A DNA stretch of 61,058 nt from Candidatus Anderseniibacteriota bacterium (GTDB lineage: Bacteria > Patescibacteriota > Andersenbacteria > UBA10190): contig JBPOIM010000020.1 in the NCBI GenBank assembly GCA_052034485.1, forward strand, positions 1 to 61,058. Reading direction: 5' to 3'. The notes under the pieces are model-generated. The model did not search any database. It worked only from the letters and a program-made list of their open reading frames with translations, and was not told the DNA's origin. Each line of letters starts with the position of its first letter. Position 1 is the stretch's first letter. Made by a program: the position numbers and the translations under genes. Below, one piece after another: positions 8,935 to 51,858 of the stretch.

Positions 8935-8940
8935 TAGGAT
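8935..8940 (+). promoter_or_regulatory. -10-like hexamer TAGGAT at -12..-7 of ATG 8947 (TAGAAT also at -17..-12)
   Basis: Read directly: ggTAGAATAGGATacataaATG. Weakest member of the recurrent geometry. Confidence 0.3.
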
Positions 8941-8946
8941 ACATAA

Positions 8947-10134
8947 ATGAGACATGTAGGAATTGGACACCTGAAAATATCAAGAAAGGGTAAAAAATAT
9001 GTCAATGAAGCCATGAAAAATAACAGGCTTTCATACGGACCTTTCACAGAGCGGTTTGAATCTACTTTTGCCTCACTACATGGATCAAAATATGCAATCG
9101 CCTCAAGCAGTGGTACTGCTGCCCTCCAAATAGCCCTCGCAGCACTCAAGGAACGCTACAAATGGCCTGACGGTTCAGAGGTCATTGTCCCAGCAACAAC
9201 ATTTATAGCTACATCAAATGTGGTTTTATATAATAACCTTGTTCCGGTTTTTGTAGATATTGAGCCAAATTATTACGAAATAGACCCTTCTCTCATTGAG
9301 AAGCATATTACGAAGAAAACAAAAGCTATCATTCCGGTACATTTATTTGGCCAGCCAGCAGACATGGGGCCAATTATGAAGATTGCGAAGAAGCATAAAC
9401 TTCGCGTCGTCGAAGATTCTTGCGAAACAATGCTTGCCTCGTATAACGGGAAATCTGTTGGATCCTTTGGGGATATTGGCTGCTTTTCTACATACGTAGC
9501 GCACCTCCTTACAACTGGAGTTGGAGGACTAAATACTACAAATGACCCAAAACTGGCAATTATATTGCGATCACTAGCAAACCATGGCAGAGATTCGATT
9601 TATCTCAATATAGATGACGATGACAATGTAGGAAAACAAAAATTTCATATGATCCTCAAAAAGCGCTTTTCTTTTGTGCGACTAGGACAAAGCGCTCGGA
9701 TAACGGAGCTTGAAAGCGCACTTGGGCTTGCGCAATTGGAGGACGAGTTTAAGGATCAAATTAAAAAAAGAAGAAGCAATGCAAAAATACTAAACAACCT
9801 GCTTGAACCGCTATCTGACATAATTCAGCTACCAAAAATTCGCCCAGGAAATCAACATTCATTTATGATGTACCCCCTAGTTCTTAAGAACGAGAGAAAG
9901 GAAAGGCTTGTTGAGTACCTTGAAGACCGTGGTGTTGAGACAAGGGATCTGCTCCCGCTCATTAATCAGCCAGTCTATAAATCACTCTTTAAATTACGTG
10001 AAAAAGACTATCCTGTGTCCCAATGGCTCATTCGGTCTGGTTTTTATATCGGGTGCCACCACGGACTCACAAAAAAAGACTTAGCCTATGTAGCCTCCCT
10101 TCTTTATTCATTCTTTGGTAGAAAGAATGTATGA
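8947..10134 (+). CDS. DegT/DnrJ/EryC1-fold PLP/PMP enzyme; Lys->His variant, so a nucleotide-sugar 3-dehydratase (ColD/E1-like) is more likely than an aminotransferase
   Basis: 395 aa. SSSGTAALQIALAAL and VIVPATTFIATSNVVLYNNLVPVFVDIEP are typical of the family. At the position of the Schiff-base lysine (consensus SF..xK....GEGG) the protein reads FSTYVAHLLTTGVGG, with His186 (codon 9502-9504) 7 residues before the GG pair. Confidence 0.6.
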   Translation: MRHVGIGHLKISRKGKKYVNEAMKNNRLSYGPFTERFESTFASLHGSKYAIASSSGTAALQIALAALKERYKWPDGSEVIVPATTFIATSNVVLYNNLVPVFVDIEPNYYEIDPSLIEKHITKKTKAIIPVHLFGQPADMGPIMKIAKKHKLRVVEDSCETMLASYNGKSVGSFGDIGCFSTYVAHLLTTGVGGLNTTNDPKLAIILRSLANHGRDSIYLNIDDDDNVGKQKFHMILKKRFSFVRLGQSARITELESALGLAQLEDEFKDQIKKRRSNAKILNNLLEPLSDIIQLPKIRPGNQHSFMMYPLVLKNERKERLVEYLEDRGVETRDLLPLINQPVYKSLFKLREKDYPVSQWLIRSGFYIGCHHGLTKKDLAYVASLLYSFFGRKNV

Positions 10135-10874
10135 AGGAGCTATCGATAGTCATTCCCACATATAACGAAAAAGACAATATAGCTATTCTTATTCGTGACA
10201 TTGAACAGGCTCTTGATGGAATCGATTTTGAAATCGTTGTTGTGGACGACAACTCACCAGATGGAACAGGCAAAATTGTACAGGAGTTATCAAGCCAAAA
10301 TCATCCCGTTAGACTTCTCACAAAAATGAAGAAAGAAGGTATTGGGGCAGCGTTACGAGAAGGATATCGTTCATGCACAACCCCAATTATCGCCTCCACC
10401 GATGCAGACTTATCCTTTAATCCTCAAGACTTAAAAAAACTCTACAACGCAATAAAGGGCGGACTAGATCTTGTTGTGGGAACGCGACACTCAAAAGGAA
10501 GTTATTACGAAACCCCGAACAGGCAAATATGGATAAAGCACATGGTAAGTCTTTTGGGCAATAGGACGTTAAAGCTACTCACGGGAATACCACTAGAAGA
10601 CTTTAGCGGTAATTTTCGGGCATTCACAAAGCAAACTTGGCAAAAAATAAACACACAAGAAAATACAAACACGCTCTTATTTGAGATGATCCTGAAGGCA
10701 TACGTTACGGGTTGCACCGTAGGGCAAATACCGGTCACATTTCATGATCGTAAATTTGGATCCTCAAAACTCAAGCTCTCACTAGAAGCTCCTAAGTTTT
10801 TTCTCAAACTGTTACGCTATCTCTTTATTTATAGAAAACAGCTTATAAAACGAAGAAGATATCGTATACTATAG
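10131..10874 (+). CDS. polyprenyl-phosphate sugar synthase, DPM1-like GT2
   Basis: 247 aa. LSIVIPTYNEKDNI, EIVVVDDNSPDGTG and STDADLSFNPQDL (DPM1-type DAD..S..P). ATGA overlap with the upstream gene. Confidence 0.8.
   Translation: MKELSIVIPTYNEKDNIAILIRDIEQALDGIDFEIVVVDDNSPDGTGKIVQELSSQNHPVRLLTKMKKEGIGAALREGYRSCTTPIIASTDADLSFNPQDLKKLYNAIKGGLDLVVGTRHSKGSYYETPNRQIWIKHMVSLLGNRTLKLLTGIPLEDFSGNFRAFTKQTWQKINTQENTNTLLFEMILKAYVTGCTVGQIPVTFHDRKFGSSKLKLSLEAPKFFLKLLRYLFIYRKQLIKRRRYRIL
10865..10870 (+). promoter_or_regulatory. -10-like hexamer TATACT at -12..-7 of ATG 10877 (internal leaderless-type promoter candidate)
   Basis: cgTATACTatagcaATG. Lies in the last codons of the upstream gene. Confidence 0.35.
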
Positions 10875-10876
10875 CA

Positions 10877-12571
10877 ATGACCATTCAGAAGAAGCTTCTT
10901 ATTCTTCTTATAGTAACAAGCTTTGCATTGACGACAATTGGAATTGTTCGCTGGAACGCAGGGGCCCCTTACGATACCGCCCATAAAGGAATAGAGACCA
11001 TAGAAGAGGTTCTACAGGGCAATATTCAGCCTTTTTATAGGCACTACAATGGGCAGCCCCCATTTATGGACTGGCTGCTTGCACCAATATTTATAGTATT
11101 TGGCATCAGCCCGTACAGCCTACATTCAGTAGGAATACTGTCTGGAGTACTAACGACTATTCTCCTTTATGTCGTTGGAAAAGAACTGTGGTCAGCGCGT
11201 GCAGGATTGTATGCAAGCCTCTTTGGCACAACGTCGCACTGGTTTCTTCTTGAAACAAGGGAGGGTACCCACAACATCCCTCTTGTTCCAATGCTCCTAT
11301 TTATATTTTGGTGCATTATAAAAATCTACAAAAGCAAAAAGACCACTCAGCGCTATATACTTGCAATTGCGGGAGGAGTAACAGCCGGCTTATTCGGATA
11401 TGTATATTCAGCTGGATGGATTTTTTCTATTTTATTTATTTTTGTATTTCCAGCCCTCCTCCTCATCTCGCTTATAACTTCAAAATTATCAAAACAACGA
11501 TGGCCCCTATTGATTCTTACTACTGCCATGTTTTTAGTGCTATTGCCGTTCATGCAGTTTGTTCTTAAGGATCCCGGATCCGTCACGCTTCATGCAGACG
11601 ATGAAATACGAACAAGAAATTCTGACTATCTCGTTCAAAGGATAATAAAAAATACTGTACCGGTTGTAGGGGCTTTTCTTTATATTCCCATTGGCCCCTT
11701 TTCAAACTGGGAAACTAATAGCCAGGCAAACATAGGCCCCTTTCATATCCCCTTCCCTGTGCCATTTGTCTCGCCAGGGGAAGGCATTCTTCTGTGTATC
11801 GCTTTTTTCTATGTATTTAAAAGCTTGTATACAAAACATCCATTATGGATGCCCCTCTTGCTTACAATTGTCCTAATCCTTGCATTTTCTCCCAATTTAT
11901 TAACAGAAGGAGCTCAGCCACACTACAGAAGGACAGCGGCCTCTATGGCGCCATTATTTTTACTGCTCGGGTACTCAGCATCAACAATTCATCAAAAAAT
12001 TTCCCTAGTATCCAATAAATATAAATGGATGTGGACAACGTTCATCGTGGCCTCAGTTTTATATGGTCCATTCTTATATTTCTTCTACATAATTCCAAGC
12101 CAATGGTTTGCGGATACGTATTTTACAAAGCACGATAAAGTGGCGCCATATCTGTTTGCCCGAGTCGCAGCAGGGCAGAGGGTAACTCTCGCTGGGAACA
12201 CCGCCCACATGAAACCATTTCAATTTTACGCACTTGCAACGCCCCAAGGTCGCCAAGCGTTTCATCTTTTAAATCTCCACACCGAGACACCATTCCCCCA
12301 AGATATTATTAATAAAACAGACGTACTTTTCTACGTATCCCCCAAATGCCAAGAGGCGTCCTTACCAGATTTTCTTCCCAGTCCAATAATTTTAGAAGAC
12401 TCATTTGGCATAAACGCATGCATATTCGATAGGCCAGGCAATCCTCAAGCGTTATTTCATAGTCAGGTACCACTACCGTCTTCAGGCAGCTTAATGAAAA
12501 AATTCCTCAGCTCCCAGAAACCCCTCAAAAAAGCCCCTTCATTCCAGGGACCGATTTTTGGGACAAATTAG
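10877..12571 (+). CDS. GT-C glycosyltransferase, ArnT/PMT_2-like
   Basis: 564 aa, polytopic. QPPFMDWLLAPIFIVFGISPYSLHSVGILSGVLTTILLYVVGKELW resembles the ArnT/PMT_2 N-terminal core. Soluble C-terminal ~150 aa. Confidence 0.65.
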   Translation: MTIQKKLLILLIVTSFALTTIGIVRWNAGAPYDTAHKGIETIEEVLQGNIQPFYRHYNGQPPFMDWLLAPIFIVFGISPYSLHSVGILSGVLTTILLYVVGKELWSARAGLYASLFGTTSHWFLLETREGTHNIPLVPMLLFIFWCIIKIYKSKKTTQRYILAIAGGVTAGLFGYVYSAGWIFSILFIFVFPALLLISLITSKLSKQRWPLLILTTAMFLVLLPFMQFVLKDPGSVTLHADDEIRTRNSDYLVQRIIKNTVPVVGAFLYIPIGPFSNWETNSQANIGPFHIPFPVPFVSPGEGILLCIAFFYVFKSLYTKHPLWMPLLLTIVLILAFSPNLLTEGAQPHYRRTAASMAPLFLLLGYSASTIHQKISLVSNKYKWMWTTFIVASVLYGPFLYFFYIIPSQWFADTYFTKHDKVAPYLFARVAAGQRVTLAGNTAHMKPFQFYALATPQGRQAFHLLNLHTETPFPQDIINKTDVLFYVSPKCQEASLPDFLPSPIILEDSFGINACIFDRPGNPQALFHSQVPLPSSGSLMKKFLSSQKPLKKAPSFQGPIFGTN

Positions 12572-15361: not shown

Positions 15362-15370
15362 TGATAGTAT
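15362..15370 (+). promoter_or_regulatory. extended -10 TGaTAGTAT at -15..-7 of ATG 15377 (leaderless-type promoter)
   Basis: ttTGATAGTATaaaataATG. No SD in the remaining 6 nt. Lies in a 79-nt divergent spacer. Confidence 0.5.
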
Positions 15371-15376
15371 AAAATA

Positions 15377-16999
15377 ATGACACACAAATCCGTAAAATAT
15401 TATCCCATTTTAGCAATTTTGCTCATTGCGCTCGTAACACGCCTCTGGGGTATTAATCATCAAATATATACAGATGAAAATAAAGTAATCACACCATCCG
15501 TATTACTAGCCCAGGGAAAACAAACTCCGATATTGTATCCAAAGGGGTCGTACTATCCCCACTTGTATCATTACGTACTTGGAGCAGCTTTCTTGCCTGC
15601 CGCGCTTGTTGGAGCCACATACCCAAGTCCAGACACCTCGGCAGATACCTATACGCTTATTGCAAGAGTAGTAACAGCCCTGTTTGGTACTGCGACAATA
15701 TACGTTGTATATAGAATCGGAAAAGAGTTACGTAGCTCAAAGCTTGGTATTTTTGCAGCACTCTTTTTAGCCTTTTTACCACTCCATGTAAAATATTCCC
15801 ACTACGCTCATGTAGATATCCCACTCGCATTCTTTACAACGCTAGCAATTTGGTCAGGAATACGCCTCATAAGAACAGGCGAATTACGTTGGTATATTCT
15901 TACGGGAATCTTAACAGGCTTAAGCGGAGCAACTCATTATACGGGACTCACAATAGGCATAGTTCTTTTACTTGCTCACGCAGTAATCATTATACGTAAT
16001 AAAGAGTATTCACTATCAAAAATATTTTCCCGAAAGATAATTCTTGGATTACTAAGCATACCCTTAGCGTTTGTAGTAACAACCCCCTACACAGTAATTA
16101 AATGGAAAGAAAGCGCGAATATCTATCACCAGCTACAGCTTCGTGGAGCAGCTGGGGACTTAGGCTACACTCGCCCAGATTTTATTTGGCCGCTAACAAC
16201 ACTGTCTCCCGACTGGGGAATTCCCTTTACAGTATCTGGCGCTTGGTGGGAATTTAGTCCGTTTATTATGGCGCTCGCAGTCATAGGTGCGTGCATAGCA
16301 ATACTAAAACGCAATTGGTACTTTGCTACAATTATCGGGATCACGGCAATCGTTATGTATATTGCCATCATCGGAAGACTACCGCTTTATGCAATTAAAC
16401 GCTTACTTCCCCTCACTCCCCTCATTTCACTCCTTGCCGCATGGGCGATCTTCCATTTCTCTGAATGGAAAAAACCAAACAATCTCGTAATTCATTCTTT
16501 ATTAGTTGCCGGGGTTTCCGCAATTGTGTTACAAAACCTTGTTTTAGCTATAGGCTTTGATGTTGCATATGCCGGAGGATCCACGCATAGCAATGCAGTA
16601 TCCTTCGCCAAAGAACACATTCCCCATGGAAGTACCATTCTCCAACATACTCCAATCAAGCTAATCGACTGGAATGACCCCAACTACACAACCGTGCGCT
16701 TGGATGAAATATACGCAAATTTTAATGCATTAGACCCCGAAGTTTCCCATGATAGAGCAAAAGATATAACGTATTGGACCCAAGAAAAGAAAGTCCAGTA
16801 CATCGCGATGGATAGCCGCATTGTTGATCGTTACTTTGATGCAACTTCCTCCCGCCTATACCCGGAAACAACCGCTTCCTATAGAGCGTTTTACGAGAAA
16901 ATAAGAAGCCAAGGGAAGCTTGTATATAAAATTGAACCAGAGCTTTGGAAAATCGCGGGGCCTCGTGTAGAAATATATGATATCCGAGACATTAAGTGA
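15377..16999 (+). CDS. GT-C glycosyltransferase, PMT/ArnT-like
   Basis: 540 aa, polytopic. TM1 then RLWGINHQIYTDENKV (DE motif). ARVVTALFGTATIYVVYRIGKEL. Soluble C-terminal ~130 aa. Confidence 0.7.
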   Translation: MTHKSVKYYPILAILLIALVTRLWGINHQIYTDENKVITPSVLLAQGKQTPILYPKGSYYPHLYHYVLGAAFLPAALVGATYPSPDTSADTYTLIARVVTALFGTATIYVVYRIGKELRSSKLGIFAALFLAFLPLHVKYSHYAHVDIPLAFFTTLAIWSGIRLIRTGELRWYILTGILTGLSGATHYTGLTIGIVLLLAHAVIIIRNKEYSLSKIFSRKIILGLLSIPLAFVVTTPYTVIKWKESANIYHQLQLRGAAGDLGYTRPDFIWPLTTLSPDWGIPFTVSGAWWEFSPFIMALAVIGACIAILKRNWYFATIIGITAIVMYIAIIGRLPLYAIKRLLPLTPLISLLAAWAIFHFSEWKKPNNLVIHSLLVAGVSAIVLQNLVLAIGFDVAYAGGSTHSNAVSFAKEHIPHGSTILQHTPIKLIDWNDPNYTTVRLDEIYANFNALDPEVSHDRAKDITYWTQEKKVQYIAMDSRIVDRYFDATSSRLYPETTASYRAFYEKIRSQGKLVYKIEPELWKIAGPRVEIYDIRDIK

Positions 17000-18237: not shown

Positions 18238-19002
18238 TTATTTTTTCGCTATAGCCAGAATGTTTTTTCGAAATATCTTCGTTTCAGTTCGACCGTAAAA
18301 ACGAAAAATAACATAGAATATCGCATCCAAAATACCTGCAACAAACCGCGAAACTCCATTCACAATTGGATTCTTTGTAACGTAAATATCTGGCCCAATT
18401 ACATGCACCTTTGAGTACTTTGCCATAAACAGTGCTTGTCGAAGACTATTTTCATTAAAACCATTTTGGTGAGTAATGTCCAAATATCGACTGTCATTTC
18501 CAAGCAATGGGTTGCCCATGTTTGGCACTTTAATGAGCACCACTCCCCCTGGCTTTAGAGCATCTCGCATTGCCTCTAACATTGCCCACATTTCTGGCTT
18601 CGTCTGGTGCTCAAGCACATCGTTTAACACAAGCGCATCTGCGGAGTTTTGGTTCTGTTTTAACCACGTAACTATCTCTTCTTCTACAACCGGGAACTTA
18701 TGTTCTTTGCAAAATTCAATTACTTCATGACCAACGTCTACTCCAAGAATATTGTTGTACCCAGCACGCTTAAGGAAGAACAGTACGTGCCCCAAGCCAG
18801 TACCAAGATCTACAATCCTCGCGTTTTTATCTTTTGGTAAATAAGGAAGATAGTTCTTCCGGAAGTATCGCTCCTGAAATAAAAAATTCTCATCATCCTG
18901 GCGACCAGCTCTGCCAAAATGAGTAGAAAGGTAATGCGCGTATGCTTCTCTTACATCCATAAATTGCAGTATGCACAAAGAAGAATTACTTGTCGAGCCC
19001 AT
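18238..19002 (-). CDS. class I SAM-dependent methyltransferase
   Basis: 254 aa. IVDLGTGLGHVLFFL, GVDVG, ADALVLNDVLEH and KPGGVVLIKVPN. Hydrophobic C-terminal segment VSRFVAGILDAIFYVIFRFY. An alternative ATG exists at 18960. Confidence 0.8.
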   Translation of the reverse strand: MGSTSNSSLCILQFMDVREAYAHYLSTHFGRAGRQDDENFLFQERYFRKNYLPYLPKDKNARIVDLGTGLGHVLFFLKRAGYNNILGVDVGHEVIEFCKEHKFPVVEEEIVTWLKQNQNSADALVLNDVLEHQTKPEMWAMLEAMRDALKPGGVVLIKVPNMGNPLLGNDSRYLDITHQNGFNENSLRQALFMAKYSKVHVIGPDIYVTKNPIVNGVSRFVAGILDAIFYVIFRFYGRTETKIFRKNILAIAKK

Positions 19003-19010
19003 GCTATACT
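19002..19010 (+). promoter_or_regulatory. extended -10 TGcTATACT at -15..-7 of ATG 19017
   Basis: aTGCTATACTcattttATG. No SD. Confidence 0.5.
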
Positions 19011-19016
19011 CATTTT

Positions 19017-20462
19017 ATGAATCAGAAATACATCCCCTGGCTATATGCCCTTCTTGTGTTAGCGATATTTGCCCCTCGAGTAATTTCTCTTGATGCATTT
19101 ACATCCCCAGACGAACCTCAATGGGAGCGTAATACACAAAATTTTGCAAAAGCGTTAGAAAATTTTGATTTAAAAAACTTGTACCAGCAACCTCACCCAG
19201 GAATTACCACTCAATGGCTTGCGGCCGCTACAATCAACGACACAACATGGGGACAAAAACGAATGCCGCTTGCAGTATTTCTTAGTGTAGCTGTTTTATA
19301 TATTGCATACATCATAAAAAAAGAATGGGGAGATACCCCAGCGCTTATTGCCGGTTTTCTCCTTGCCTTAAACCCGCTACTAATTGCGCATTCCAGAGTC
19401 CTTGCTATGGATGCTCTCCTAGGAGTGTTTTGTATCGCGACGGTATTGCATCATATTGTATGGATTGAACACAAAAAACAAAAAGATATTATATTAGCAG
19501 GAGTATTTTCGGCATTGGCAATGCTTTCCAAGCTTTCGGCCTTTGGACTCATCATATACATCCTTCTCGGGAGCATCATTGCCTTCACGAGCAAAAAACT
19601 AACGTGGAAGGATTTACTGAATGGAGCGTGGATATACGCCGCTTCAATCATCGTAGCTTCAGTTATTGCGTTTCCGACACTTTTAACTAATTTCCCATAC
19701 GTCTTAGAAGGTAGCTCGCAATTTTTCCATACAGAGCATTTTCAGCAAAAAGTGCATGCGCTTGGGCCATGGTGGTATCCGCAAGCATTTTTACTTTGGA
19801 CAACCCCTCTTCAGCTACTTGGGATTCTGCTTATCCCCCTTGCAGTAGCAAAGCACTCCAAACACCGCCTGCCTATTCTTATGGCATTTCTATTTTGCAT
19901 TATATTCTTTCTAGAAATCCAATATTCCATTAAAAAGGGAGACCGCTACATGCTCCCCGTATTTATAGGTTTTGATATAATAACGGCCTTTGTATTTACT
20001 TTACAGTCTAAAAAATATGCAAAAATTGCATTGGCAGCATGCGCAGTAGGCATTATATGGCAAGGATATCAGGTATGGGACCTCCACCCATACGAACTTG
20101 CATACCGCAATCCGTTCTTTGCTTCTATTGCAAAGGGTCGCACCATGGGCTGGGGAGAGGGCCTAGATGTAGCGGCAGATTATCTTAATCAAAAAGAGCA
20201 CCCCGAAAACCTCCTTGTGGCGTCATACTATGAAAGCTCTTTCGCATATCACTTTAAAGGCAAATTTACCTCAGCAGAACGCCTCGGAAAAGAAACGGCC
20301 GAAGAAATAGGGGCAGATTATGTTGTGCTATACAGAACCATGGAAGGGCGAGCCGAAAACCGCTGGGAAACAAAAGTACTTGCTGCATACAAGGACAAAA
20401 CTCCAGAAAAAGTTATCACACTAAATAACGAAGAATACGTCTGGATATACAAAGTGAAATAG
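19017..20462 (+). CDS. GT-C glycosyltransferase, PMT/ArnT-like (WGEGL paralog family)
   Basis: The ORF-track start 18990 is a TTG; the first ATG is 19017, 6 nt downstream of TGcTATACT. APRVISLDAFTSPDEPQW, HPGITTQW, KKGDRYMLP and GWGEGLDVAADYL. Confidence 0.75.
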   Translation: MNQKYIPWLYALLVLAIFAPRVISLDAFTSPDEPQWERNTQNFAKALENFDLKNLYQQPHPGITTQWLAAATINDTTWGQKRMPLAVFLSVAVLYIAYIIKKEWGDTPALIAGFLLALNPLLIAHSRVLAMDALLGVFCIATVLHHIVWIEHKKQKDIILAGVFSALAMLSKLSAFGLIIYILLGSIIAFTSKKLTWKDLLNGAWIYAASIIVASVIAFPTLLTNFPYVLEGSSQFFHTEHFQQKVHALGPWWYPQAFLLWTTPLQLLGILLIPLAVAKHSKHRLPILMAFLFCIIFFLEIQYSIKKGDRYMLPVFIGFDIITAFVFTLQSKKYAKIALAACAVGIIWQGYQVWDLHPYELAYRNPFFASIAKGRTMGWGEGLDVAADYLNQKEHPENLLVASYYESSFAYHFKGKFTSAERLGKETAEEIGADYVVLYRTMEGRAENRWETKVLAAYKDKTPEKVITLNNEEYVWIYKVK

Positions 20463-22009: not shown

Positions 22010-22015
22010 GTTTTC

Positions 22016-22024
22016 ATCGTACCA
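22016..22024 (-). promoter_or_regulatory. extended -10 TGgTACGAT at -15..-7 of ATG 22009 (minus strand)
   Basis: Reverse complement reads TGGTACGATgaaaacATG. Confidence 0.45.
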
Positions 22025-22030: not shown

Positions 22031-22039
22031 TGATATGCT
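22031..22039 (+). promoter_or_regulatory. extended -10 TGaTATGCT at -15..-7 of ATG 22046
   Basis: caTGATATGCTgtgcccATG. Back-to-back with the minus-strand element at 22016-22024. Confidence 0.45.
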
Positions 22040-22045
22040 GTGCCC

Positions 22046-22753
22046 ATGTATGAGAAGATCAAACAGCAATGGAACAAATCTTCGGACCACCTCTCTGGAT
22101 CAGATGCCTTTTGGGAAAGAAGTGCGCTCGGTCTATCCCTTCTCGTAGACTTCAAGAAAGTTTTGACTAAAGAGAACATTCATGGCAAATTGCTCGACGC
22201 TGGTGCCGGCAAGCTTTCGTATAGACACCTCGTACGCCCCCTCTGCACCGAATACAAAAGCATGGATTTCCAAAAGACCCACCCAGAACTCGATTACCAA
22301 TCAGATATTCAAGACATGCCCCTTGAGAACGAATCTTTTGACACCGTGCTATCTGCGGAAGTATTAGAGCACGTACCCGACCCAGAGAAAGCTCTACGAG
22401 AAATATATCGAGTTTTAAAACCAGGAGGAAAGCTAGTTATGTCCATTCCTCACCTTATGTATCTCCATAATGAGCCATACGATTTTTATCGATATACCCA
22501 ATATGGATTGCGAACCCTACTGGAGCGCGTCGGCTTTACTGTTGAATACTTGAAACCATCTGGAAGCATCTTCTCTTTTCTACAAGGAATTATTGCAACA
22601 ACTTTTATAGGGCTAACATACAATATTCCAATCATTTGGGAGATTACTTTTCTTCTGAGCAAAAATACCAGCAAGATCGCCATCTGGCTAGACAATCACA
22701 CCGACAAAAAGAAGATTTTTGCGCTCCACTTTATTGCCGTTGCTCGCAAATAG
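22046..22753 (+). CDS. class I SAM-dependent methyltransferase
   Basis: The ORF-track start 22040 is a GTG; ATG at 22046. LLDAGAGKLSY, FDTVLSAEVLEHV and KPGGKLVMSIPH. Hydrophobic C-terminal segments IFSFLQGIIATTFIGLTY and IPIIWEITFLL. Confidence 0.8.
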   Translation: MYEKIKQQWNKSSDHLSGSDAFWERSALGLSLLVDFKKVLTKENIHGKLLDAGAGKLSYRHLVRPLCTEYKSMDFQKTHPELDYQSDIQDMPLENESFDTVLSAEVLEHVPDPEKALREIYRVLKPGGKLVMSIPHLMYLHNEPYDFYRYTQYGLRTLLERVGFTVEYLKPSGSIFSFLQGIIATTFIGLTYNIPIIWEITFLLSKNTSKIAIWLDNHTDKKKIFALHFIAVARK

Positions 22754-40604: not shown

Positions 40605-40610
40605 ACTGCA

Positions 40611-40619
40611 ACCATACCA
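40611..40619 (-). promoter_or_regulatory. extended -10 TGgTATGGT at -15..-7 of asnB ATG 40604 (minus strand)
   Basis: Reverse complement reads tttTGGTATGGTtgcagtATG. Confidence 0.45.
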
Positions 40620-40624: not shown

Positions 40625-40633
40625 TGGTATACT
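40625..40633 (+). promoter_or_regulatory. extended -10 TGgTATACT at -15..-7 of ATG 40640
   Basis: aacTGGTATACTcgggaaATG. Back-to-back with 40611-40619 inside a 35-nt divergent spacer. Confidence 0.5.
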
Positions 40634-40639
40634 CGGGAA

Positions 40640-42889
40640 ATGGACCCAAAACCTTATATTCCACATATTATTATCGGAAGCATTATCCTTATTGCTATTG
40701 CAGCGTTCCTCCCAGCATCCCAAAACCATATCGTCTCGTATGGGGAAGATACGTACTCCACCCATAAACCCCTCTTTTCATCCCATACAGCAGAAGAGAC
40801 TATTACCACAACAAAAGAGACGGTTGGCTTAGGAGCAATTCTTGTCGACCTTCGCCGAACAAAGGATCTAAAAGATACTCGCGTAGAAATTTTTGACCAA
40901 GAAAGCGGTACCTTATTGCTATCACAATTAATATCTGCAAACTCAATAAAAGACGATGAGTTTGCGTATACTATATTTTCAAACAACCCTATCAGTAAAA
41001 ACAAAAAAATACGTATCGTATTTTCAAGCCCAGACTCTACAATAAAAAATCCAACTGGACTACGCTTTGATCCCGCAAAGAGCATTTTGGCAATCTCGCT
41101 CAAAGAGCGCATACCTCTTTGGCAAGCAGTACAAACAACCATAGCAAACAATATTCAAACGTGGGGATACATCATGCTTGCTGGCGCATTCTCTCTTATC
41201 TGCGCAGCCACAATATTTACTACTTCAAAATACAAAAAAGCATGGGTCGTAATCCTCGGAATATTTCTCGTATTCTCGTTTACGGCTCGGGCTCTTATTA
41301 TTCCAAAATTTGAAGGAGTAAGCGGAGGGGATGCGTACAACTACCTATTTATCACTAAAGCGATAACAAAACTACAAAATCCATTTGCAAACACCAAGCG
41401 CCTCCCAGGATATCCGGCGACACTCGTACCATTTTTTGCATCGGGAGCCTTTAATGAACAAAATATTATGCGATACTCTCAATCGCTTTGGAGTATTGTC
41501 GGGATCGGTCTTATTGTGACAATCGCACGAACAATTGGACTATCTTGGCCTGTTGCACTGCTGGCAGGAACCATTCTCGCCTTTCAAAAAGATTATTACA
41601 TAACCTCTGTACGACCTGAGCCATATTCAATGTATACAGCGCTCTTACTTGCGTCTGTTCTCATGTTCTTATCCTCATATAAAAATCCTCAAAAATGGAA
41701 ATTTGTCTTGTTTGGAATTTTTCTCGGGTACAGCGCACTAACACGACAAGAAGGTTTTGTGCTTGCCGTACTCTTAGGAACATCTTCCTTGATTTATGAA
41801 GGCTATACGCTATACAAGACAAACTGGAAAGGCTCAATTTGGGATTCAGGAAAGCGATTCCTATATATGTATGGTCCGGCATTCATTGTCATCCTTCCAT
41901 TTTTCATTAATAGCGCAATTGCATACGGAAACCCTCTCTACACAAAGTACCTAGAAGGAGAGCGCCTGCAAATCGTGCATTCATATTCAGACTTCGAAGA
42001 TGCTGCCGGAGCATCGTGGGGTGTTATCGATTCAATGTGGAAATCCTCATGGGATCGCCTCGCTCGAATCCCGCTCTCAACACCGGCCTTTCTCTCGTCG
42101 ATAGTTCTATTATGGGCCTGGTATGCAGCATCACAGCATTCATCAAAAAAAGATGTTGCCCGCTTTATTGCAATCATCGCAACACTTGCATGGATCACCA
42201 TTATATACCTGGCGGGAGCGAATAAAGGGCTTGTCACCGAATATATTCCGATCGTTACATCAGCATGGATATTCGCAAGTATTCCGATTTTTATTTGGAA
42301 AACAAAAGTGCCAGGAATATTTCTTACCATCGTACTTATCTCTCAAGCAGGGATTGCATTATGGTTTCACCCATTTGCAAAACATTTCCAGCAATCATAT
42401 CCGTTTATTGTCCTAATGATTGCAACCGCTCTCGTATCAGGTATCGATACAAAAAAGAAGTACATGACAGCAAGCCTTCTTGCCGTATTCTCTCTTCCCT
42501 TTTTTCTTACAGCTTCTTTTCTCCTAAAAAATGTGAACGCTGAAATAGACCAGTACAACGAAGGGGTTGCGGAGGATTCTGTTGTATACCGAGCAACACG
42601 TGCAGTACGCTCGATGCCAGGACCTATTGGATTTGACCAGGCCTACCTTCCAGCGCTTCTCTATTTTGACAACGGGGAAAAGGAAGCGAAGTTTTTCCCA
42701 GGAGAAGAGCACCCTACTCTAGAATTCGAAAAAGCCTGGCTGAAAGACAATAGAATCAAAACTCTCGTAACAATGAGCGGAGATGATATATTTTCAAACC
42801 CAGACCCGTCATGGAAAAAAATAAAGGCATTTAAAGCTGCGGGAAAGCACGAAAAGATTTTTGAAAGTGTTATATACTCAATTCCGTAA
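40640..42889 (+). CDS. large polytopic membrane protein, GT-C-like, with N-terminal extracytoplasmic module
   Basis: The ORF track starts at 40478, antisense inside asnB; ATG 40640 (MDPKPYIPHIIIGSIILIAI...) lies 6 nt downstream of TGgTATACT. TM1, a ~140-aa soluble module, then SGGDAYNYLFITKAI...KRLPGYP and many TM helices. Confidence 0.55.
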   Translation: MDPKPYIPHIIIGSIILIAIAAFLPASQNHIVSYGEDTYSTHKPLFSSHTAEETITTTKETVGLGAILVDLRRTKDLKDTRVEIFDQESGTLLLSQLISANSIKDDEFAYTIFSNNPISKNKKIRIVFSSPDSTIKNPTGLRFDPAKSILAISLKERIPLWQAVQTTIANNIQTWGYIMLAGAFSLICAATIFTTSKYKKAWVVILGIFLVFSFTARALIIPKFEGVSGGDAYNYLFITKAITKLQNPFANTKRLPGYPATLVPFFASGAFNEQNIMRYSQSLWSIVGIGLIVTIARTIGLSWPVALLAGTILAFQKDYYITSVRPEPYSMYTALLLASVLMFLSSYKNPQKWKFVLFGIFLGYSALTRQEGFVLAVLLGTSSLIYEGYTLYKTNWKGSIWDSGKRFLYMYGPAFIVILPFFINSAIAYGNPLYTKYLEGERLQIVHSYSDFEDAAGASWGVIDSMWKSSWDRLARIPLSTPAFLSSIVLLWAWYAASQHSSKKDVARFIAIIATLAWITIIYLAGANKGLVTEYIPIVTSAWIFASIPIFIWKTKVPGIFLTIVLISQAGIALWFHPFAKHFQQSYPFIVLMIATALVSGIDTKKKYMTASLLAVFSLPFFLTASFLLKNVNAEIDQYNEGVAEDSVVYRATRAVRSMPGPIGFDQAYLPALLYFDNGEKEAKFFPGEEHPTLEFEKAWLKDNRIKTLVTMSGDDIFSNPDPSWKKIKAFKAAGKHEKIFESVIYSIP

Positions 42890-44725: not shown

Positions 44726-45676
44726 TCCTTTCGCAACACAGACCAATGGGTCGTCTGCAATGTAACAAGGCACTTGAGTTGCCTGAGAGATTAATTCATC
44801 AATATTAGCAAGCATTGCCCCTCCACCACTCACTACAATACCTTTGTCGATAATATCTGCAGCAAGCTCTGGAGGAGTATCCTGAAGAACATATTTAATA
44901 GCCTGAATCACCTCAAGAAGCGGGTCACGAAGCGCTTCGGTAACTTCAAATGAAGAAATAATTGTTTCTTTTGGAAGCCCCGTTGCCAAATCACGACCAC
45001 GGATACTCATAGAATCTGGAGACTCTTCTATCACCGCAGATCCTATTTGCTTTTTAATCTCCTCCGCAGTCATCTCTCCAATTACAACTCCGTATCGCTT
45101 TTTAATATGTTCAGCAATTGCATGGTCAAATACATTACCTCCCACCCGAGCAGAGTGAGCCACAACAATTCCGCCCAATGAGATAACAGCCACTTCGGTT
45201 GTACCTCCCCCAATATCAACAATCATGTGGCCAGAGCTCTCTCCGATAGGGATACTTGCACCAATAGCAGCTGCAACAGGTTCTTTAATTAAATATGCAG
45301 CTTTTGCGCCAGCAGAAAGCGTTGCGTCTACCACAGCCCTTCGCTCAGTGCTCGTAATCCCAGCCGGAACAGAAACAAGGACTTCAGGGCGAAGAAACCG
45401 AACGGATGCCCCCGTTTTCTTCAAAAGATACCGCAGCATTGCTTCCGTGACACGATAATCAGCAATAACACCATCTCGAAGAGGGCGATGCACTACGATG
45501 CTTTCTGGAGTTCTTCCAATCATCGCATATGCGTCATCACCTACCGCTAAAACCGCGTTATCAATTTGAGAAACGGCAACAATAGAAGGTTCATTCAATA
45601 CAATACCCTTCCCAGGCACATACATAATTGTGCTCGTTGTTCCTAAATCAATTGCTATCTTGCGTGTGAGCGCCAC
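44666..45676 (-). CDS. mreB: rod shape-determining actin homolog MreB
   Basis: 336 aa. IAIDLGTTSTIMYVPGKGIVLNEPSIVAV, MIVDIGGGTTEVAVISLGG and VVSGGGAML. GTG start at 45676 preceded by GAAGGAGGAG (45679-45688). Overlaps the murA stop (TAGTG). Confidence 0.9.
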   Translation of the reverse strand: MALTRKIAIDLGTTSTIMYVPGKGIVLNEPSIVAVSQIDNAVLAVGDDAYAMIGRTPESIVVHRPLRDGVIADYRVTEAMLRYLLKKTGASVRFLRPEVLVSVPAGITSTERRAVVDATLSAGAKAAYLIKEPVAAAIGASIPIGESSGHMIVDIGGGTTEVAVISLGGIVVAHSARVGGNVFDHAIAEHIKKRYGVVIGEMTAEEIKKQIGSAVIEESPDSMSIRGRDLATGLPKETIISSFEVTEALRDPLLEVIQAIKYVLQDTPPELAADIIDKGIVVSGGGAMLANIDELISQATQVPCYIADDPLVCVAKGSGAALENIDAYKRSILLTK

Positions 45677-46923
45677 TACTCCTCCTTCGTTACAGATGCC
45701 CCCACCGCTTGCAGGCGATCAACAATATGAGCATATCCTCGCTCAATGATCTCTGCTTGGTCAATAATTGTCGTACCTTTTGCAATAAGTCCAGCAATAA
45801 GCAAGCATGCTCCTGAGCGAATATCGAGACTTGGAATTTGCCTTCCAACAAGAGGCGTTGGTCCATTAATAATCACACGATGCGGATCGCACACAACTGC
45901 CTTTGCGCCCATCTTTTCTAATTCAAATATATGCTTAAACCTTCCCTCATACATAGGGTCATGAATCAAACTACTTCCGGAAGCTTGTGTTGCAATAATT
46001 GCAAACGGAGCTTGAAGGTCGCTCGGCATACCAGGATACGGAAGTACCTGCACGCGAAATGGTTTAAACGTGCTCGGAGAAACGGTAACTGTTGAGCCGT
46101 CTATCTTGTATGCAATACCAATCTCCGTACACTTTTTGAAAAATAGTAAAAGTTGATCCACTGGAACATTAAGAACAGAAATAGTTGACTGCGTTGCCGC
46201 TGCAAGAAGAATAAAAGAAGCAGCCTCAAGCATATCTGGAATATTTGTTACCTCTGCGCCAGAAAGCTTTTCTTTTCCTTTTACAATAATTGTATGGGTA
46301 CCATCTCCGGTTATTTCTGCTCCCATTGCACGCAGCAAATCACAAAGCACCACCACATGAGGCTCTGCTGCCGCAATATGAATTGTTGTAGTACCTGGGA
46401 GCGTTGCCGCTGCAAGAAGAATATTCTCTGTTGCAGTAACTGAGAACTCCTTCAACACCACCACTCCCGCTTTCATACTCTTCCCATCCATTTTCACAAC
46501 ATCCCCTGCAATATCAACAGACACGCCAAGCTGCTCAAATGCATCCACATGCACATCTATAGGACGAGCACCAATAATATCACCACCGGGCAATGGAAGC
46601 GTCGCCGTACGATTGCGCCCAAGAAGCGCCCCAAGAAGTAAAATTGATCCTCGTAATTTTCCAACCGCCTGTGCTGATATTTCGGAAGTACCAACCTCTT
46701 GAGCCGTTACATGAACAGTATCTCCGTCTTGCTCAACTTTTACACCCAGTGAAGTCATAATGTCCTTCATAACAAACAAGTCTCGGATAGGAGGAATATT
46801 ATGAAGAGTGATCGTATCTTCACTTAAGAGCGTAGCTGCCAAAAGAGGTAATGATGCGTTTTTTGACCCATATACCGGTATCTCCCCTGAAAGCCCTCGA
46901 GATTCTTGTATCACCAGTCGCAT
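45676..46923 (-). CDS. murA: UDP-N-acetylglucosamine 1-carboxyvinyltransferase MurA (Asp115 variant)
   Basis: 415 aa. VYGSKNASLPLLAATLL and LPLPGGDIIGARPIDVH (E. coli has PGGCxIGARPVDLH). Asp at residue 115, codon 46579-46581 (gat on the minus strand). Confidence 0.9.
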   Translation of the reverse strand: MRLVIQESRGLSGEIPVYGSKNASLPLLAATLLSEDTITLHNIPPIRDLFVMKDIMTSLGVKVEQDGDTVHVTAQEVGTSEISAQAVGKLRGSILLLGALLGRNRTATLPLPGGDIIGARPIDVHVDAFEQLGVSVDIAGDVVKMDGKSMKAGVVVLKEFSVTATENILLAAATLPGTTTIHIAAAEPHVVVLCDLLRAMGAEITGDGTHTIIVKGKEKLSGAEVTNIPDMLEAASFILLAAATQSTISVLNVPVDQLLLFFKKCTEIGIAYKIDGSTVTVSPSTFKPFRVQVLPYPGMPSDLQAPFAIIATQASGSSLIHDPMYEGRFKHIFELEKMGAKAVVCDPHRVIINGPTPLVGRQIPSLDIRSGACLLIAGLIAKGTTIIDQAEIIERGYAHIVDRLQAVGASVTKEE

Positions 46924-46966
46924 ATCAATTAAGCCTAGCTGATCTAGTAAGAACTTTCAATTGGAG

Positions 46967-46972
46967 TATTAT
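46967..46972 (+). promoter_or_regulatory. -10 hexamer TATTAT at -12..-7 of ATG 46979
   Basis: ggagTATTATgcctatATG. Confidence 0.4.
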
Positions 46973-46978
46973 GCCTAT

Positions 46979-48325
46979 ATGCATCTCTATATTCGAAGGA
47001 CATTACTCGGTATTTCATATACTGCGTTTGTTATTATTGCGCCAATCGTCATTTTATACGCGGTAGGATATCGCCCACAAATATCCTCTCCAATTCCTCG
47101 GGCCGTAGGAGTAATCCTTGCAGACTCCAATCCCCCAAAAGCATCAATTATTATTAACGGAATTGACAAAGGCACTCTTCCGCGAGCAGTACCGAATATT
47201 GAACCAGGAATAACTTCTATTCAAGTAACAAAAGATGGGTATACGTCCTGGCAGAAATCTCTTGAAATCAAATCCGCAGAGGCAACAGATGTTCGATCCA
47301 TCGTTCTTCTTCCATCCTCATTCGACGAAACGAATGTAGTCGCGAACGCGCGAGCATTCTCCCTTTCTCCAAGCGGACTATTTATTGCAACAGCAAACAC
47401 TGACGGCAAACTTCACATTCAAGACATCGAGGGAGCCCCTATCAGCGCAAGCGGACAACTTTCAGGAAGTGCGAATCGAATTGAGTGGTCTCCAGACGGT
47501 ACGTACATCATCGTAGAGTCTGGAAAGCGAGTATATGACCTATTCCACTTCGACCACAACACGCTAGAAAAGGTATCAAGCAAAGCACTCGTGGGAGCAT
47601 CACACATAAGCTGGAGCCCAAGCACAGTTGGTAGCCTATACGGCCAAACACCCGAAGGAGATGTATTCCTTTACTCTATCACCACCGGAGCAAAGGAAGT
47701 AATTGTTAAGAAAGTGAACACATACGAAATAGCGAACAGAATGATCTACTACCAGACATTCCAAAATACTCTCTATGGGTCACCATTGCGCTCCATTGAA
47801 CCAAAAGTTCTCTCTCGGGATACCGGGAAACCACTTGAAAAGATTTCGCTTGGAAACAATGGCAATCTCATCCTGATAGCACACGATGGTCAACTACAAC
47901 TCTTGAAAAACCATGGGGAATTTAAAACCCTCTCCCCCTCCGTAATACATGCATCATGGTCTCCAGATGGCGAACTTATTCTCATTCAAACAGCACCAAC
48001 AGAACTGTATGTATACAATGTTGAAAACGAACGTTTTTTTGCAATTCCTCAAGGAGAGCTTCATTTAGTAACACGCCTATCGCAATCGATTACCAATCCA
48101 CAATGGTTTTCAGATAGTGAACATATTTTCTACCAACTAAATGGCTCGCTCATGTTCTCAGAAGTAGATACCAGAGACCACGCAATTGCGACGCCAATAA
48201 AATCTCTCCCAATACTTGGAAATGTTGCAATCGGAGGAAGCGCAAAAAGTATCTTCTCCATACAGCAAGAAGGAAAGACATCAAATCTCATTCAAACATT
48301 CCTCCAGACAAAAGAGGATAGATAA
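46979..48325 (+). CDS. membrane-anchored PEGA-domain / beta-propeller (TolB-like WD40) protein
   Basis: The ORF-track start 46961 is a TTG; ATG 46979 lies 6 nt downstream of TATTAT. N-terminal TM helix. PEGA-like ASIIINGIDKGTLPRAVPNIEPGITSIQVTKDGYTSW. Repeated WSPDG-type blades (EWSPDGTYI, SWSPSTVG, SWSPDGELI). Confidence 0.6.
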   Translation: MHLYIRRTLLGISYTAFVIIAPIVILYAVGYRPQISSPIPRAVGVILADSNPPKASIIINGIDKGTLPRAVPNIEPGITSIQVTKDGYTSWQKSLEIKSAEATDVRSIVLLPSSFDETNVVANARAFSLSPSGLFIATANTDGKLHIQDIEGAPISASGQLSGSANRIEWSPDGTYIIVESGKRVYDLFHFDHNTLEKVSSKALVGASHISWSPSTVGSLYGQTPEGDVFLYSITTGAKEVIVKKVNTYEIANRMIYYQTFQNTLYGSPLRSIEPKVLSRDTGKPLEKISLGNNGNLILIAHDGQLQLLKNHGEFKTLSPSVIHASWSPDGELILIQTAPTELYVYNVENERFFAIPQGELHLVTRLSQSITNPQWFSDSEHIFYQLNGSLMFSEVDTRDHAIATPIKSLPILGNVAIGGSAKSIFSIQQEGKTSNLIQTFLQTKEDR

Positions 48326-48326
48326 T

Positions 48327-48396: not shown

Positions 48397-48639
48397 TCAG
48401 GGCTGCTTCTCCGGGGGAAATAATGGCGCATCAACATTTTGAACCTGTTCAGCCTGGTCCTGCCGGATCTGAGCCTGGTCCCGTTGAATCGCATCATAGA
48501 CTTCCTGCCTATGCACAGGAATCTCTCTGGGAGCATTAATTCCGAGACGCACTTTGTAGCCCCGGATATCGACAACGGTGATAACAATATTATCCCCGAT
48601 GACGATACTTTCATCTCTCTGCCGCGACAGCACTAACAT
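48397..48639 (-). CDS. csrA: carbon storage regulator CsrA
   Basis: 80 aa. MLVLSRQRDESIVIGDNIVITVVDIRGYKVRLGINAPREIPVHRQEVY. GGAGGG SD (48647-52) 7 nt from the ATG. Confidence 0.9.
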   Translation of the reverse strand: MLVLSRQRDESIVIGDNIVITVVDIRGYKVRLGINAPREIPVHRQEVYDAIQRDQAQIRQDQAEQVQNVDAPLFPPEKQP

Positions 48640-48721
48640 GGTGATTCCCTCCTGGAAAAATGGGGGGTGAAGAGAGCGAGCCTCGATTGCTCACTCGGAG
48701 GATTGGAAAGAACGTGCGTCA

Positions 48722-48751
48722 AAAATAACACACGTACTTATAAATTGTCAA
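48722..48751 (-). promoter_or_regulatory. candidate sigma70-type promoter of csrA: TTGACA - 18 nt - TATTTT
   Basis: Reverse complement of 48722-48751 reads TTGACAatttataagtacgtgtgtTATTTT. Starts 2 nt after the stop of the upstream SDR gene. Predicts a ~75-nt leader. Confidence 0.35.
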
Positions 48752-50878: not shown

Positions 50879-50887
50879 AGACCCTTT

Positions 50888-51823
50888 TTAAAAGCCCTTG
50901 GTATCTTTGATAGAGTAGGGTTTCTTTTCTGCGTAATACGTATGCGCCACAATGTCGGCAAGCACCCCAGAAAGCAGGAATTGGAACCCAAGCAATACAA
51001 GCAATACCGCAAGGAGAGGAGAGGACCTTCCCGACAATGCAATCAATCGGAACAGCCAGAGAATCCCGAGCGTTCCTCCGAGCAAAAACCCTGTGAGGAT
51101 AAATACCGCCCCAATAGCTCCGAAGAAATGCATCGGTCGTGCAGAATACTGAATCCAAAACTTTACAATCAATAAATCTAAAAATCCTTTCAGCTTTTTT
51201 CGAACATTATATTTTGTTGTACCAGTCGTACGAGGATGATGGCGAACAACCATCTCCCCAACGCGAAAACCTTTCCAAGAAAGTAGTGCGGTAATATATC
51301 GGTGCATTTCACCATACAGCTCTAGGTCTTCGAGTGCTTCTTTGCGATAAACCTTCAAACTGCACCCCTGATCATGAATCTTTTCACCTGTAACCTTTTT
51401 GCGAATCCAGTTTCCGATTTTACTTCCCAGCTTTAGCACGCTTTTATCCTGACGTTCTTTTCTCCAGCCAGATACAACATCAAGATCCTCGTCTCGTAAC
51501 TTTTGGATCATCGCAGGAATATCCTCTGGGTCATTTTGCAAATCAGCATCCATTACGATAACAACGTCTCCCGTTGCCGCAGAAAAACCTGCAGACCACC
51601 CCGCAGTTTGGCCAAAGCTCCTTCTAAATCGAATAACTTTTACATGGCTATCCGCCGAAGATAGTTCGGATAAAATACTATATGTAGAATCCGTACTACC
51701 ATCATCAACAACAATAAGCTCCCATGCTCCGTCCATTTTCTCAAAAACTCGCTTCGTAGCCTCGTAGAGAGCCTTAATTGACCCCTCTTCGTTGTGTGCT
51801 GGTACGACAATGCTATAGTCCAT
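50888..51823 (-). CDS. polyprenyl-phosphate glycosyltransferase, GtrB/ArnC-like GT2 with two C-terminal TM helices
   Basis: 311 aa. YSIVVPAHNEEGSI, LIVVDDGSTDST, RFRRSFGQTAG and VMDADLQNDPEDI. C-terminal helices FFGAIGAVFILTGFLLGGTLGILWL and LLAVLLVLLGFQFLLSGVLA. Confidence 0.8.
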   Translation of the reverse strand: MDYSIVVPAHNEEGSIKALYEATKRVFEKMDGAWELIVVDDGSTDSTYSILSELSSADSHVKVIRFRRSFGQTAGWSAGFSAATGDVVIVMDADLQNDPEDIPAMIQKLRDEDLDVVSGWRKERQDKSVLKLGSKIGNWIRKKVTGEKIHDQGCSLKVYRKEALEDLELYGEMHRYITALLSWKGFRVGEMVVRHHPRTTGTTKYNVRKKLKGFLDLLIVKFWIQYSARPMHFFGAIGAVFILTGFLLGGTLGILWLFRLIALSGRSSPLLAVLLVLLGFQFLLSGVLADIVAHTYYAEKKPYSIKDTKGF

Positions 51824-51829
51824 AGAGAA

Positions 51830-51858
51830 AAACTACACTAATATGTATAATTTGTCAA
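51830..51858 (-). promoter_or_regulatory. candidate promoter TTGACA - 17 nt - TAGTTT, with the -10 at -12..-7 of ATG 51823
   Basis: Reverse complement reads TTGACAaattatacatattagtgTAGTTTttctctATG. Lies in the 57-nt spacer between rmlA and the GtrB-like gene. Confidence 0.45.

Follow-up and report, generated by a model that had tools for sequence, protein, structure and literature searches.

Hexamers resembling sigma70 -10 boxes next to start codons suggest leaderless mRNAs in an envelope-glycosylation cluster of a Patescibacteria genome

The window examined in this study is a 61,058-nt stretch of DNA (contig JBPOIM010000020.1, assembly GCA_052034485.1) from a Candidatus Anderseniibacteriota bacterium. 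This 61-kb window is contig C2 of an assembly that totals 796,829 bp in 68 contigs and is 96.5% complete, and the host genome is 0.8 Mb in size with 43% GC. AsnB was dropped as a taxonomic marker because its relatives were dispersed across many phyla, and placement was based on MreB, whose closest relatives were metagenome-assembled genomes of Patescibacteria (candidate phyla radiation [CPR]), the nearest being labelled Candidatus Andersenbacteria at 84-90% identity. The window is one big envelope-glycosylation cluster, carrying many GT-C/PMT_2, GT2, and GT4 glycosyltransferases together with methyltransferases, sugar epimerases, rmlABCD, asnB, murA, mreB, and csrA. Its genes switch strands 17 times, and the eight divergent junctions have spacers of -2, 14, 35, 36, 55, 61, 79, and 95 nt. 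An initial annotation had described a TAnnnT hexamer fixed at positions -12 to -7 relative to the A of the start ATG in 12 of these genes, and had proposed that most of the small units are transcribed as leaderless mRNAs.

The coordinates of all hexamers were checked base by base (Table 1). All 12 sites of the initial annotation were found at their positions, six of them with the TGn extension that had been described, and so were the more distant TATACT boxes before ATG 38719, 52759, and 42893 and the GGAGG sites of mreB, csrA, and the Nudix gene. The 16S rRNA has a canonical 3′ end (GGATCACCTCCTTTCTAG), with an intact anti-Shine-Dalgarno (anti-SD) CCUCC. Nevertheless, for 43 of the 47 starts examined in the window, the preceding 17 nt contained no SD core, the exceptions being mreB, csrA, the Nudix gene, and a weak AGGA lying inside the hexamer of ATG 8947. 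GGAG, GAGG, or GGAGG occurred within range in none of the 12 hexamer-led genes, although a GGAG was located 12 nt before ATG 46979.

To avoid circularity, the positional statistics were based on a motif-blind rule, by which the first ATG of each of 47 long nonoverlapping open reading frames (ORFs) was taken as the start. TAnnnT was found at exactly -12 of 14 of these 47 starts, compared with 2 at -13, 4 at -14, and an average of about 1.2 at the other offsets from -45 to -6. Two of these spacing-6 genes, 38719 (TACTGT) and 58675 (TAATGT), were additional to the 12 listed initially. Only 1 of 315 internal in-frame ATGs had TAnnnT at -12, and the hexamer occurred at 1.8% of positions over the whole window; the binomial probability of 14/47 was 7e-14 with this background and 3e-9 with a generous background of 4%. 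A column profile of the 47 starts that presupposed no motif peaked at A-11 (28/47), T-12 (23/47), and T-7 (22/47), and T-12, A-11, and T-7 are the best-conserved positions of the sigma70 -10 box. Furthermore, TGn preceded 6 of the 14 spacing-6 boxes, whereas 1/16 was expected (p = 1e-4). When spacings of 6-8 nt were counted, a box was present at 20 of the 47 genes, all of which start with ATG. Among the 23 transcription-unit heads, 12 had such a box, 2 were SD led, and 9 had neither. A motif-centred count of generic TAnnnT or TGnTAnnnT in the window and the loci gave no peak, because the motif is too common; therefore, only perfect TATACT or a gene-centred profile was informative.

Several lines of evidence support the start codons on which this geometry depends. 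Class II amidotransferases use an N-terminal Cys as the nucleophile, so AsnB must start with Met-Cys; ATG 40604 reads MCG and the GATase domains begin at once, which fixes this start. In several other genes, the Pfam domain starts within the first 2-14 residues. All 10 ATG-start proteins that were looked up were identical to the products of independent public gene calls, and near-identical cluster members were equal in length. Longer TTG or GTG alternatives would run into the divergent neighbour. Thus, the preference of the initial annotation for ATG over upstream TTG or GTG starts agreed with the public gene calls and the AsnB N terminus.

Genome-wide counts were obtained by pattern searches over the 797-kb assembly, with the pattern read backwards as a control. 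The initial annotation had proposed looking for a genome-wide positional enrichment, and one was found. TATACT itself, with 386 occurrences, was not over-represented, but TATACT-N6-ATG, TATACT-N7-ATG, and TATACT-N8-ATG occurred 24, 19, and 20 times versus 10, 8, and 9 in the controls, a total of 63 compared with the approximately 20 expected from other spacings (about 7 per spacing; p = 2e-14). An ORF of at least 80 codons was opened by 45 of these 63 ATGs, namely 19/24, 14/19, and 12/20 for spacings 6, 7, and 8. The enrichment was specific to ATG, which was counted 11, 12, and 13 times at 6, 7, and 8 nt after TATACT, compared with 1, 0, and 1 for GTG and 3, 8, and 4 for TTG. TGn preceded 18 of the 45 gene-start TATACT boxes (40%) but only 4 of 86 other TATACT sites (4.7%), an approximately 8-fold difference (Fisher p = 7e-7). 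Among 81 genes that flank TATACT sites elsewhere, with those selected by the query excluded, 8 had TAnnnT at -12 and 18 had an SD core; with TATACT-selected genes again excluded, 13 of the 81 had a leaderless-type box, to be added to the 45 TATACT gene starts, so the genome-wide fraction is a rough one.

The genome encodes a primary RpoD-type sigma factor (RpoD_Cterm, 354.8 bits versus a curated cut-off of 354) and a second sigma70-family protein. E. coli and Gram-positive bacteria have extended -10 promoters (TGnTATAAT), in which a poor or missing -35 box is made up for by a TG placed one base before the hexamer. Good -35 boxes were present before 51823 (6/6), 46923 and 8947 (each 5/6), and 29902, as well as before murA orthologues. 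Two further candidate signs were rejected. A pyrimidine at -1, considered as a mark of the start site, occurred in 37/45 starts genome-wide and in 14/18 leaderless-type starts but in 27/29 other starts, and the folding energy of the first 35 nt was not discriminating, at -2.9 kcal/mol for leaderless-type versus -2.4 kcal/mol for other starts (internal coding sequence, -4.2 kcal/mol).

The arrangement was also found in relatives. The gene order csrA-PEGA-murA-mreB was kept in five relatives, in all of which a promoter still stood 6-8 nt ahead of the murA start, albeit with a diverged sequence (Table 1). Of six genomes, four or five preserved the layout at the PEGA gene, whose orthologues had TACACT-7, TACTGT-6, and TAACAT-8, whereas csrA was SD led in the four relatives whose locus reaches the csrA start. 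Compared with the 95.5% identical contig L230 over 28724-50633, the 45 nt upstream of 15 starts had 9 differences in 675 positions (1.3%) versus 4.4% overall (p = 6e-6). Some of these 45-nt regions are spacers between genes and others reach into the 3′ ends of preceding genes; taken together, they are under constraint. No upstream difference fell in a -10 hexamer in either of two near-identical strains (99.1% and 95.5%); substitutions between these contigs are too few to resolve single motif positions, and it is the overall upstream constraint alone that is visible. Assemblies of the public runs SRR5423073 and ERR14369873 contain near-identical contigs. In twelve genomes of the same genus, TATACT-N6-ATG was counted 418 times versus 121 in the control. 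In a phylum sample of 101 genomes, which includes the genome studied here and four of its family, TGnTAnnnT-N6-ATG was at least 1.5-fold over the control in 82 genomes, with a median of 2.2-fold. A gene-centred profile of 75 other Patescibacteria loci peaked at -13/-12, with 38 and 36 of 476 genes, respectively, versus about 14. In family f10 (G026, G054, G079, and G102; genomes of 1.1-1.6 Mb), TGnTAnnnT-N6-ATG showed no excess, the ratios being 0.6-1.1.

Table 1. Hexamers before start codons in the window, SD-led contrast cases, and the murA start in five relatives (numbers between hyphens are nucleotides)
Gene	Arrangement	Box position	Start codon	Span	Strand	Remark
DegT-type aminotransferase	TAGGAT-6-ATG	8935-8940	ATG 8947	8935..8949	+	TTGCCA-18 upstream at 8911-8916
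GT-C glycosyltransferase	TATACT-6-ATG	10865-10870	ATG 10877	10865..10879	+	
GT-C/PMT	TGaTAGTAT-6-ATG	15362-15370	ATG 15377	15362..15379	+	
GT-C	TGcTATACT-6-ATG	19002-19010	ATG 19017	19002..19019	+	
GT-C	TGgTACGAT-6-ATG	22016-22024	ATG 22009	22007..22024	-	
Methyltransferase	TGaTATGCT-6-ATG	22031-22039	ATG 22046	22031..22048	+	
171-aa membrane protein	TTTACC-18-TATACT-6-ATG	29890-29895	ATG 29902	29890..29904	+	
Epimerase	TAATAT-6-ATG	31459-31464	ATG 31471	31459..31473	+	Gap to upstream gene 9 nt
GT-C gene	TATACT-8-ATG, overlapping TACTGT-6-ATG		ATG 38719	38717..38733	-	
asnB	TGgTATGGT-6-ATG	40611-40619	ATG 40604	40602..40619	-	Start fixed by MCG N terminus
749-aa protein	TGgTATACT-6-ATG	40625-40633	ATG 40640	40625..40642	+	
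murA	TTGAAA-17-TAGGCT-8-ATG		ATG 46923	46921..46960	-	Promoter-beside-start layout kept in five relatives
PEGA/beta-propeller protein	TATTAT-6-ATG	46967-46972	ATG 46979	46967..46981	+	
GT2	TTGACA-17-TAGTTT-6-ATG	51830-51858	ATG 51823	51821..51858	-	
SIS isomerase	TATAAT-8-ATG, overlapping TAATGT-6		ATG 58675	58673..58689	-	Absent from the initial list
676-aa membrane protein	TATAGT-7-ATG		ATG 6538	6536..6551	-	Within upstream ORF; possible internal promoter
rmlD	TATTTT-7-ATG		ATG 59512	59510..59525	-	Downstream of strong terminator-like hairpin 59554-59587
mreB (contrast case)	GGAGG 4 nt before GTG		GTG	45674..45685	-	SD led, coupled to murA
csrA (contrast case)	TTGACA-18-TATTTT promoter, long leader, GGAGG-8-ATG		ATG	48637..48751	-	ORF 48397-48639
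Nudix gene (contrast case)	TTGACA-18-TATAAT promoter (12/12), leader, GGAGG-9-ATG		ATG	60459..60548	-	AAAGGAGG 9 nt before ATG
murA, L085	TTGAAA-17-TATCCT-6-GTG		GTG			
murA, L083	TTGTCA-17-TACACT-6-ATG		ATG			
murA, L084	TTGCTG-18-TATTCT-7-ATG		ATG			
murA, L081	TAGGCT-6-ATG		ATG			
murA, L082	TTGCCA-17-cACAGT-6-ATG		ATG			

Taken together, these data indicate that the hexamers are probably sigma70-type -10 boxes placed 6-8 nt before the ATG, giving leaderless mRNA. With a -10 box at this distance, the transcription start (+1) should coincide with the A of the ATG or adjoin it. In the mechanism proposed, housekeeping sigma70-type promoters, often of the extended TGnTAnnnT form that needs little or no -35 box, would direct RNA polymerase to start on the A of the ATG or within 1-2 bases of it, and ribosomes would load directly on the 5′-terminal AUG without SD contact. 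This loading step is taken from E. coli, mycobacteria, and Deinococcus, where leaderless translation by loading on a 5′-terminal AUG is established. The layout would head about half of the units of the cluster, with SD sites kept for a few genes (csrA, Nudix, and mreB) and internal genes translated by coupling, and its use appears to extend through the genome and the genus to most of the phylum.

The divergent junctions fit this layout. The TGcTATACT box of ATG 19017 begins at the first start-codon base of the divergent gene across the 14-nt spacer, and the boxes of the 749-aa gene and asnB stand back to back inside a 35-nt spacer. The 35- and 36-nt divergent spacers would be explained by extended -10 boxes lying 5-6 nt apart on opposite strands, with the -35 positions inside the partner gene. 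Two polymerases can hardly bind such a spacer together.

SD-led initiation is available in this genome and is used sparingly. The two genes that combine a nearly perfect two-hexamer promoter with a genuine leader are csrA and the Nudix gene. The longest ORF of the csrA stretch (48360-48614) is not in the frame of csrA itself; in the near-identical strain L228, csrA has a 2-nt deletion and substitutions between SD and ATG, and in L230 the public gene call was lengthened to 101 aa. As for the ribosome itself, one complete 16S rRNA gene was found (G000:C44:4581-6086) and a second, partial match (G000:C20:2895-3738; model positions 9-902) represents another copy of the gene or else an assembly fragment. 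The best ribosomal protein S1 match (G000:C68:11463-12173, rpsA model positions 3-223, 102 bits) ends at a contig end.

Nearly all of the 24 operon-internal genes start at the previous stop, overlapping it (frequently as ATGA) or adjoining it (-8 to +12 nt), and are mostly without SD; examples are the starts at 3356, 4504, 8063, 10131, 25331, 53767, 57109, and 58103. The motif was missing at 18 of the 24. Translational coupling of these genes is therefore probable, and the arrangement suggests SD-independent termination-reinitiation. Six boxes (6538, 10877, 31471, 38719, 52759, and 58675) are located within an upstream ORF of the same strand or shortly behind it, with gaps of at most 21 nt. 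That of ATG 10877 is within the 3′ end of the preceding GT2 gene and would therefore be an internal promoter; the six may all be internal promoters, or chance may account for one or two of them. A TATACT-7-ATG was also seen at 43414-43429 inside the 610-aa gene 42893-44725, in frame and with 432 codons left, which could be an internal promoter and start for a shorter isoform or could be chance.

Two further loci showed unusual starts. At 13248-13251, a single CATG serves the start codons of both divergent methyltransferase genes, neither of which has TAnnnT at spacing 6-8; the nearest boxes are a TATATT on the minus strand at spacing 14 and an aATACT 14 nt before an alternative plus-strand ATG, 13273. 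The minus-strand methyltransferase gene 8060-8851 has no box before ATG 8851, but TTGATC-16-TATAGT (8864-8837) is located downstream of it. Were this promoter used, the in-frame ATG 8812 would have a leader of about 17 nt; the gene may therefore really start at 8812.

A number of observations weigh against the leaderless reading. We infer the transcription start site from geometry alone, just as we infer the ribosome-loading mode from established work in other bacteria. ATG 8947 has a competing, better-looking box, TGgTAGAAT at 8927-8935, with spacing 11. For TATACT, spacings 7 and 8 were as common as 6 genome-wide, and some mRNAs may carry leaders of 1-2 nt. The backwards-read control is unvalidated on an SD-using outgroup. 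Nine unit heads, including the CATG-sharing pair 13249/13250, lack the arrangement, and the contrast between unit heads (12/23 with a spacing 6-8 box) and operon-internal genes (6/24) was weak (p = 0.075). The six genes at same-strand junctions could equally be coupled on polycistronic mRNA, with about 1.4 chance matches expected. -35 boxes were not enriched, being found at 7/45 gene-start TATACT boxes versus 7/86 other sites (p = 0.24); as TGn was enriched and -35 boxes were not, the promoters look mainly of the extended -10 type. Likewise, a two-hexamer consensus scan gave no excess over dinucleotide shuffles (31 versus 45, 25 versus 43, and 30 versus 29), recovering just the boxes of 8947 and 29902 and, among promoters with a leader, those of Nudix and csrA. 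Within 8000-48000, the two-hexamer matches were below those of the shuffles (31 versus 45.1 +/- 6.8 and 25 versus 43.0 +/- 6.4), a deficit that may mean that spurious full promoters are avoided within genes. The leaderless reading of the initial annotation agreed with the positional, genome-wide, genus, and orthologue comparisons, but two of its terms were too strong, in addition to the rival box of 8947. Instead of being fixed at -12 to -7, the box predominates at spacing 6 in the window while all spacings from 6 to 8 are used genome-wide and murA orthologues drift between them, and about half of the unit heads, not most, have the arrangement.

Among the alternatives, the one that survives best, though unlikely, is that the promoters are real but that transcription starts a few bases upstream or from neighbouring boxes, so that the mRNAs would have SD-less leaders of about 1-12 nt and load by an S1-type mechanism on an A/U-rich 5′ end. 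The equal frequency of TATACT spacings 6, 7, and 8 and the spacing-11 box of ATG 8947 are in line with this, as is the partial S1-like ORF at a contig end. Moreover, boxes 9-20 nt upstream were found at the unit heads 19002, 37243, 17046, 54267, and 13250, for which short SD-less leaders are therefore suggested, and at 52759. However, the peak in the window is sharp at spacing 6 (14 versus 2 and 4), the canonical distance from -10 to +1, and the enrichment is specific to ATG, as expected of a codon that needs a 5′-terminal place. Besides, by convention an mRNA with a leader of 0-5 nt still counts as leaderless.

Much less probable is that TAnnnT acts in translation, as a non-SD signal resembling the ribosome-binding sites of GeneMarkS-2 group B, on mRNAs that are polycistronic or have leaders and whose transcription starts further upstream. 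Most window genes are indeed without SD, six boxes lie at the close same-strand junctions, and the two-hexamer scan revealed no excess of full promoters. Against this, the conserved positions are those of a -10 box; TGn, a contact of sigma region 3.0, is 8-fold enriched at gene-start boxes; and murA orthologues have -35 boxes at the correct 17-18 nt. Additionally, the motif does not stand before 18 of the 24 operon-internal genes, whereas in group B every gene is preceded by one (PMC6028130), and the 35-36-nt divergent spacers leave no room for other promoters. Finally, an artefact of AT-rich upstream DNA and of start codons picked to fit the motif, to which the commonness of TAnnnT, the flat generic motif-centred count, and the choice of ATG over upstream TTG or GTG in six genes of the initial annotation might have pointed, was excluded by the motif-blind, genome-wide, and orthologue tests, since the motif-blind rule yields the same peak, no enrichment is seen at adjacent offsets of this AT-rich DNA, public gene calls have identical starts, and the initial choices had no influence on the genome-wide, genus-wide, or orthologue tests.

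The signal that we read as leaderless promoters has the same definition and position as that of the TA-led genes, in which a -10-like TANNNT with its first T about 12 nt upstream of the translation start was interpreted as a promoter next to the ORF (Zheng et al. 2011, PMC3160421). That survey covered 953 genomes and preceded CPR genomes; TA-led genes exceeded 20% in the richest phyla, the rich groups being Actinobacteria and Deinococcus-Thermus. Unlike in the surveyed genomes, the middle of the hexamer is informative here (TATACT-like and often TGn extended), in a genome of 43% GC and 0.8 Mb. The spacing range and the fraction (12/23 heads) also match group C of GeneMarkS-2, with a Pribnow box 6-8 nt before the start, as in Mycobacterium, Corynebacterium, Streptomyces, and Deinococcus (Lomsadze et al. 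2018, PMC6028130). The remaining genes of group C genomes use SD-type ribosome-binding sites, whereas operon-internal genes here are mostly without SD. In group B, the same motif precedes all genes including operon-internal ones and so cannot be a promoter (PMC6028130); the operon-internal genes here mostly lack it, and the TGn and -35 features speak for a promoter. The main text of neither PMC3160421 nor PMC6028130 mentions CPR or its member groups.

Leaderless transcriptomes have been mapped in M. tuberculosis and M. smegmatis (Cortes 2013; Shell 2015, PMC4633059) and in Deinococcus deserti (de Groot 2014), as cited in PMC6028130. As far as these studies are described there, the mycobacteria and D. 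deserti have the same layout, in which a -10 box directly upstream of the AUG, here a predicted one, corresponds to the mRNA 5′ end; their leaderless mRNAs have differential RNA sequencing (dRNA-seq), ribosome-profiling, or proteomic proof, whereas those proposed here are predicted from sequence. By the same account, mycobacteria also use GUG, whereas ATG alone is enriched here, though one orthologue (murA of L085) has GTG. Like extended -10 promoters, the putative promoters of the window fit 35-nt divergent spacers with the -35 positions inside the partner gene; unlike the classical ones, which produce leadered mRNAs, their box is tied to the start codon. The searched literature yielded no account of leaderless transcription for Patescibacteria, CPR, Saccharibacteria, Parcubacteria, or TM7x, and the sole CPR start-site set found comprises 188 sites of Nanosynbacter lyticus obtained by indirect RNA-seq inference (PMC12641261). 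The mechanism itself is already known, and its occurrence in Patescibacteria is new to the searched literature.

Tentatively, and with somewhat less confidence than doubt, we propose that an AUG-abutting promoter could be the default unit start in most Patescibacteria, with SD leaders kept for a few regulated or recently acquired genes (csrA and the Nudix cassette) and internal genes served by stop-start coupling. If true, this would be a phylum-wide initiation regime, possibly tied to the reduced ribosomes and very small genomes of the phylum, and promoters, unit boundaries, and true start codons would become readable from sequence alone in uncultured CPR genomes. If the leaderless reading of the genome studied here is correct, transcripts for a large part of its envelope-glycosylation machinery, and for about a fifth or more of its genes, would start at the AUG, and start calling in CPR should use a promoter-at-minus-12 model instead of SD scoring. 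The layout would also allow divergent genes to sit 14-36 nt apart in compacted genomes, and it would bear on the heterologous expression of CPR genes. From an evolutionary viewpoint, a large, deep-branching phylum with reduced ribosomes would join the leaderless-rich bacteria (Actinobacteria and Deinococcus-Thermus), which would bear on the debate over an ancestral leaderless state.

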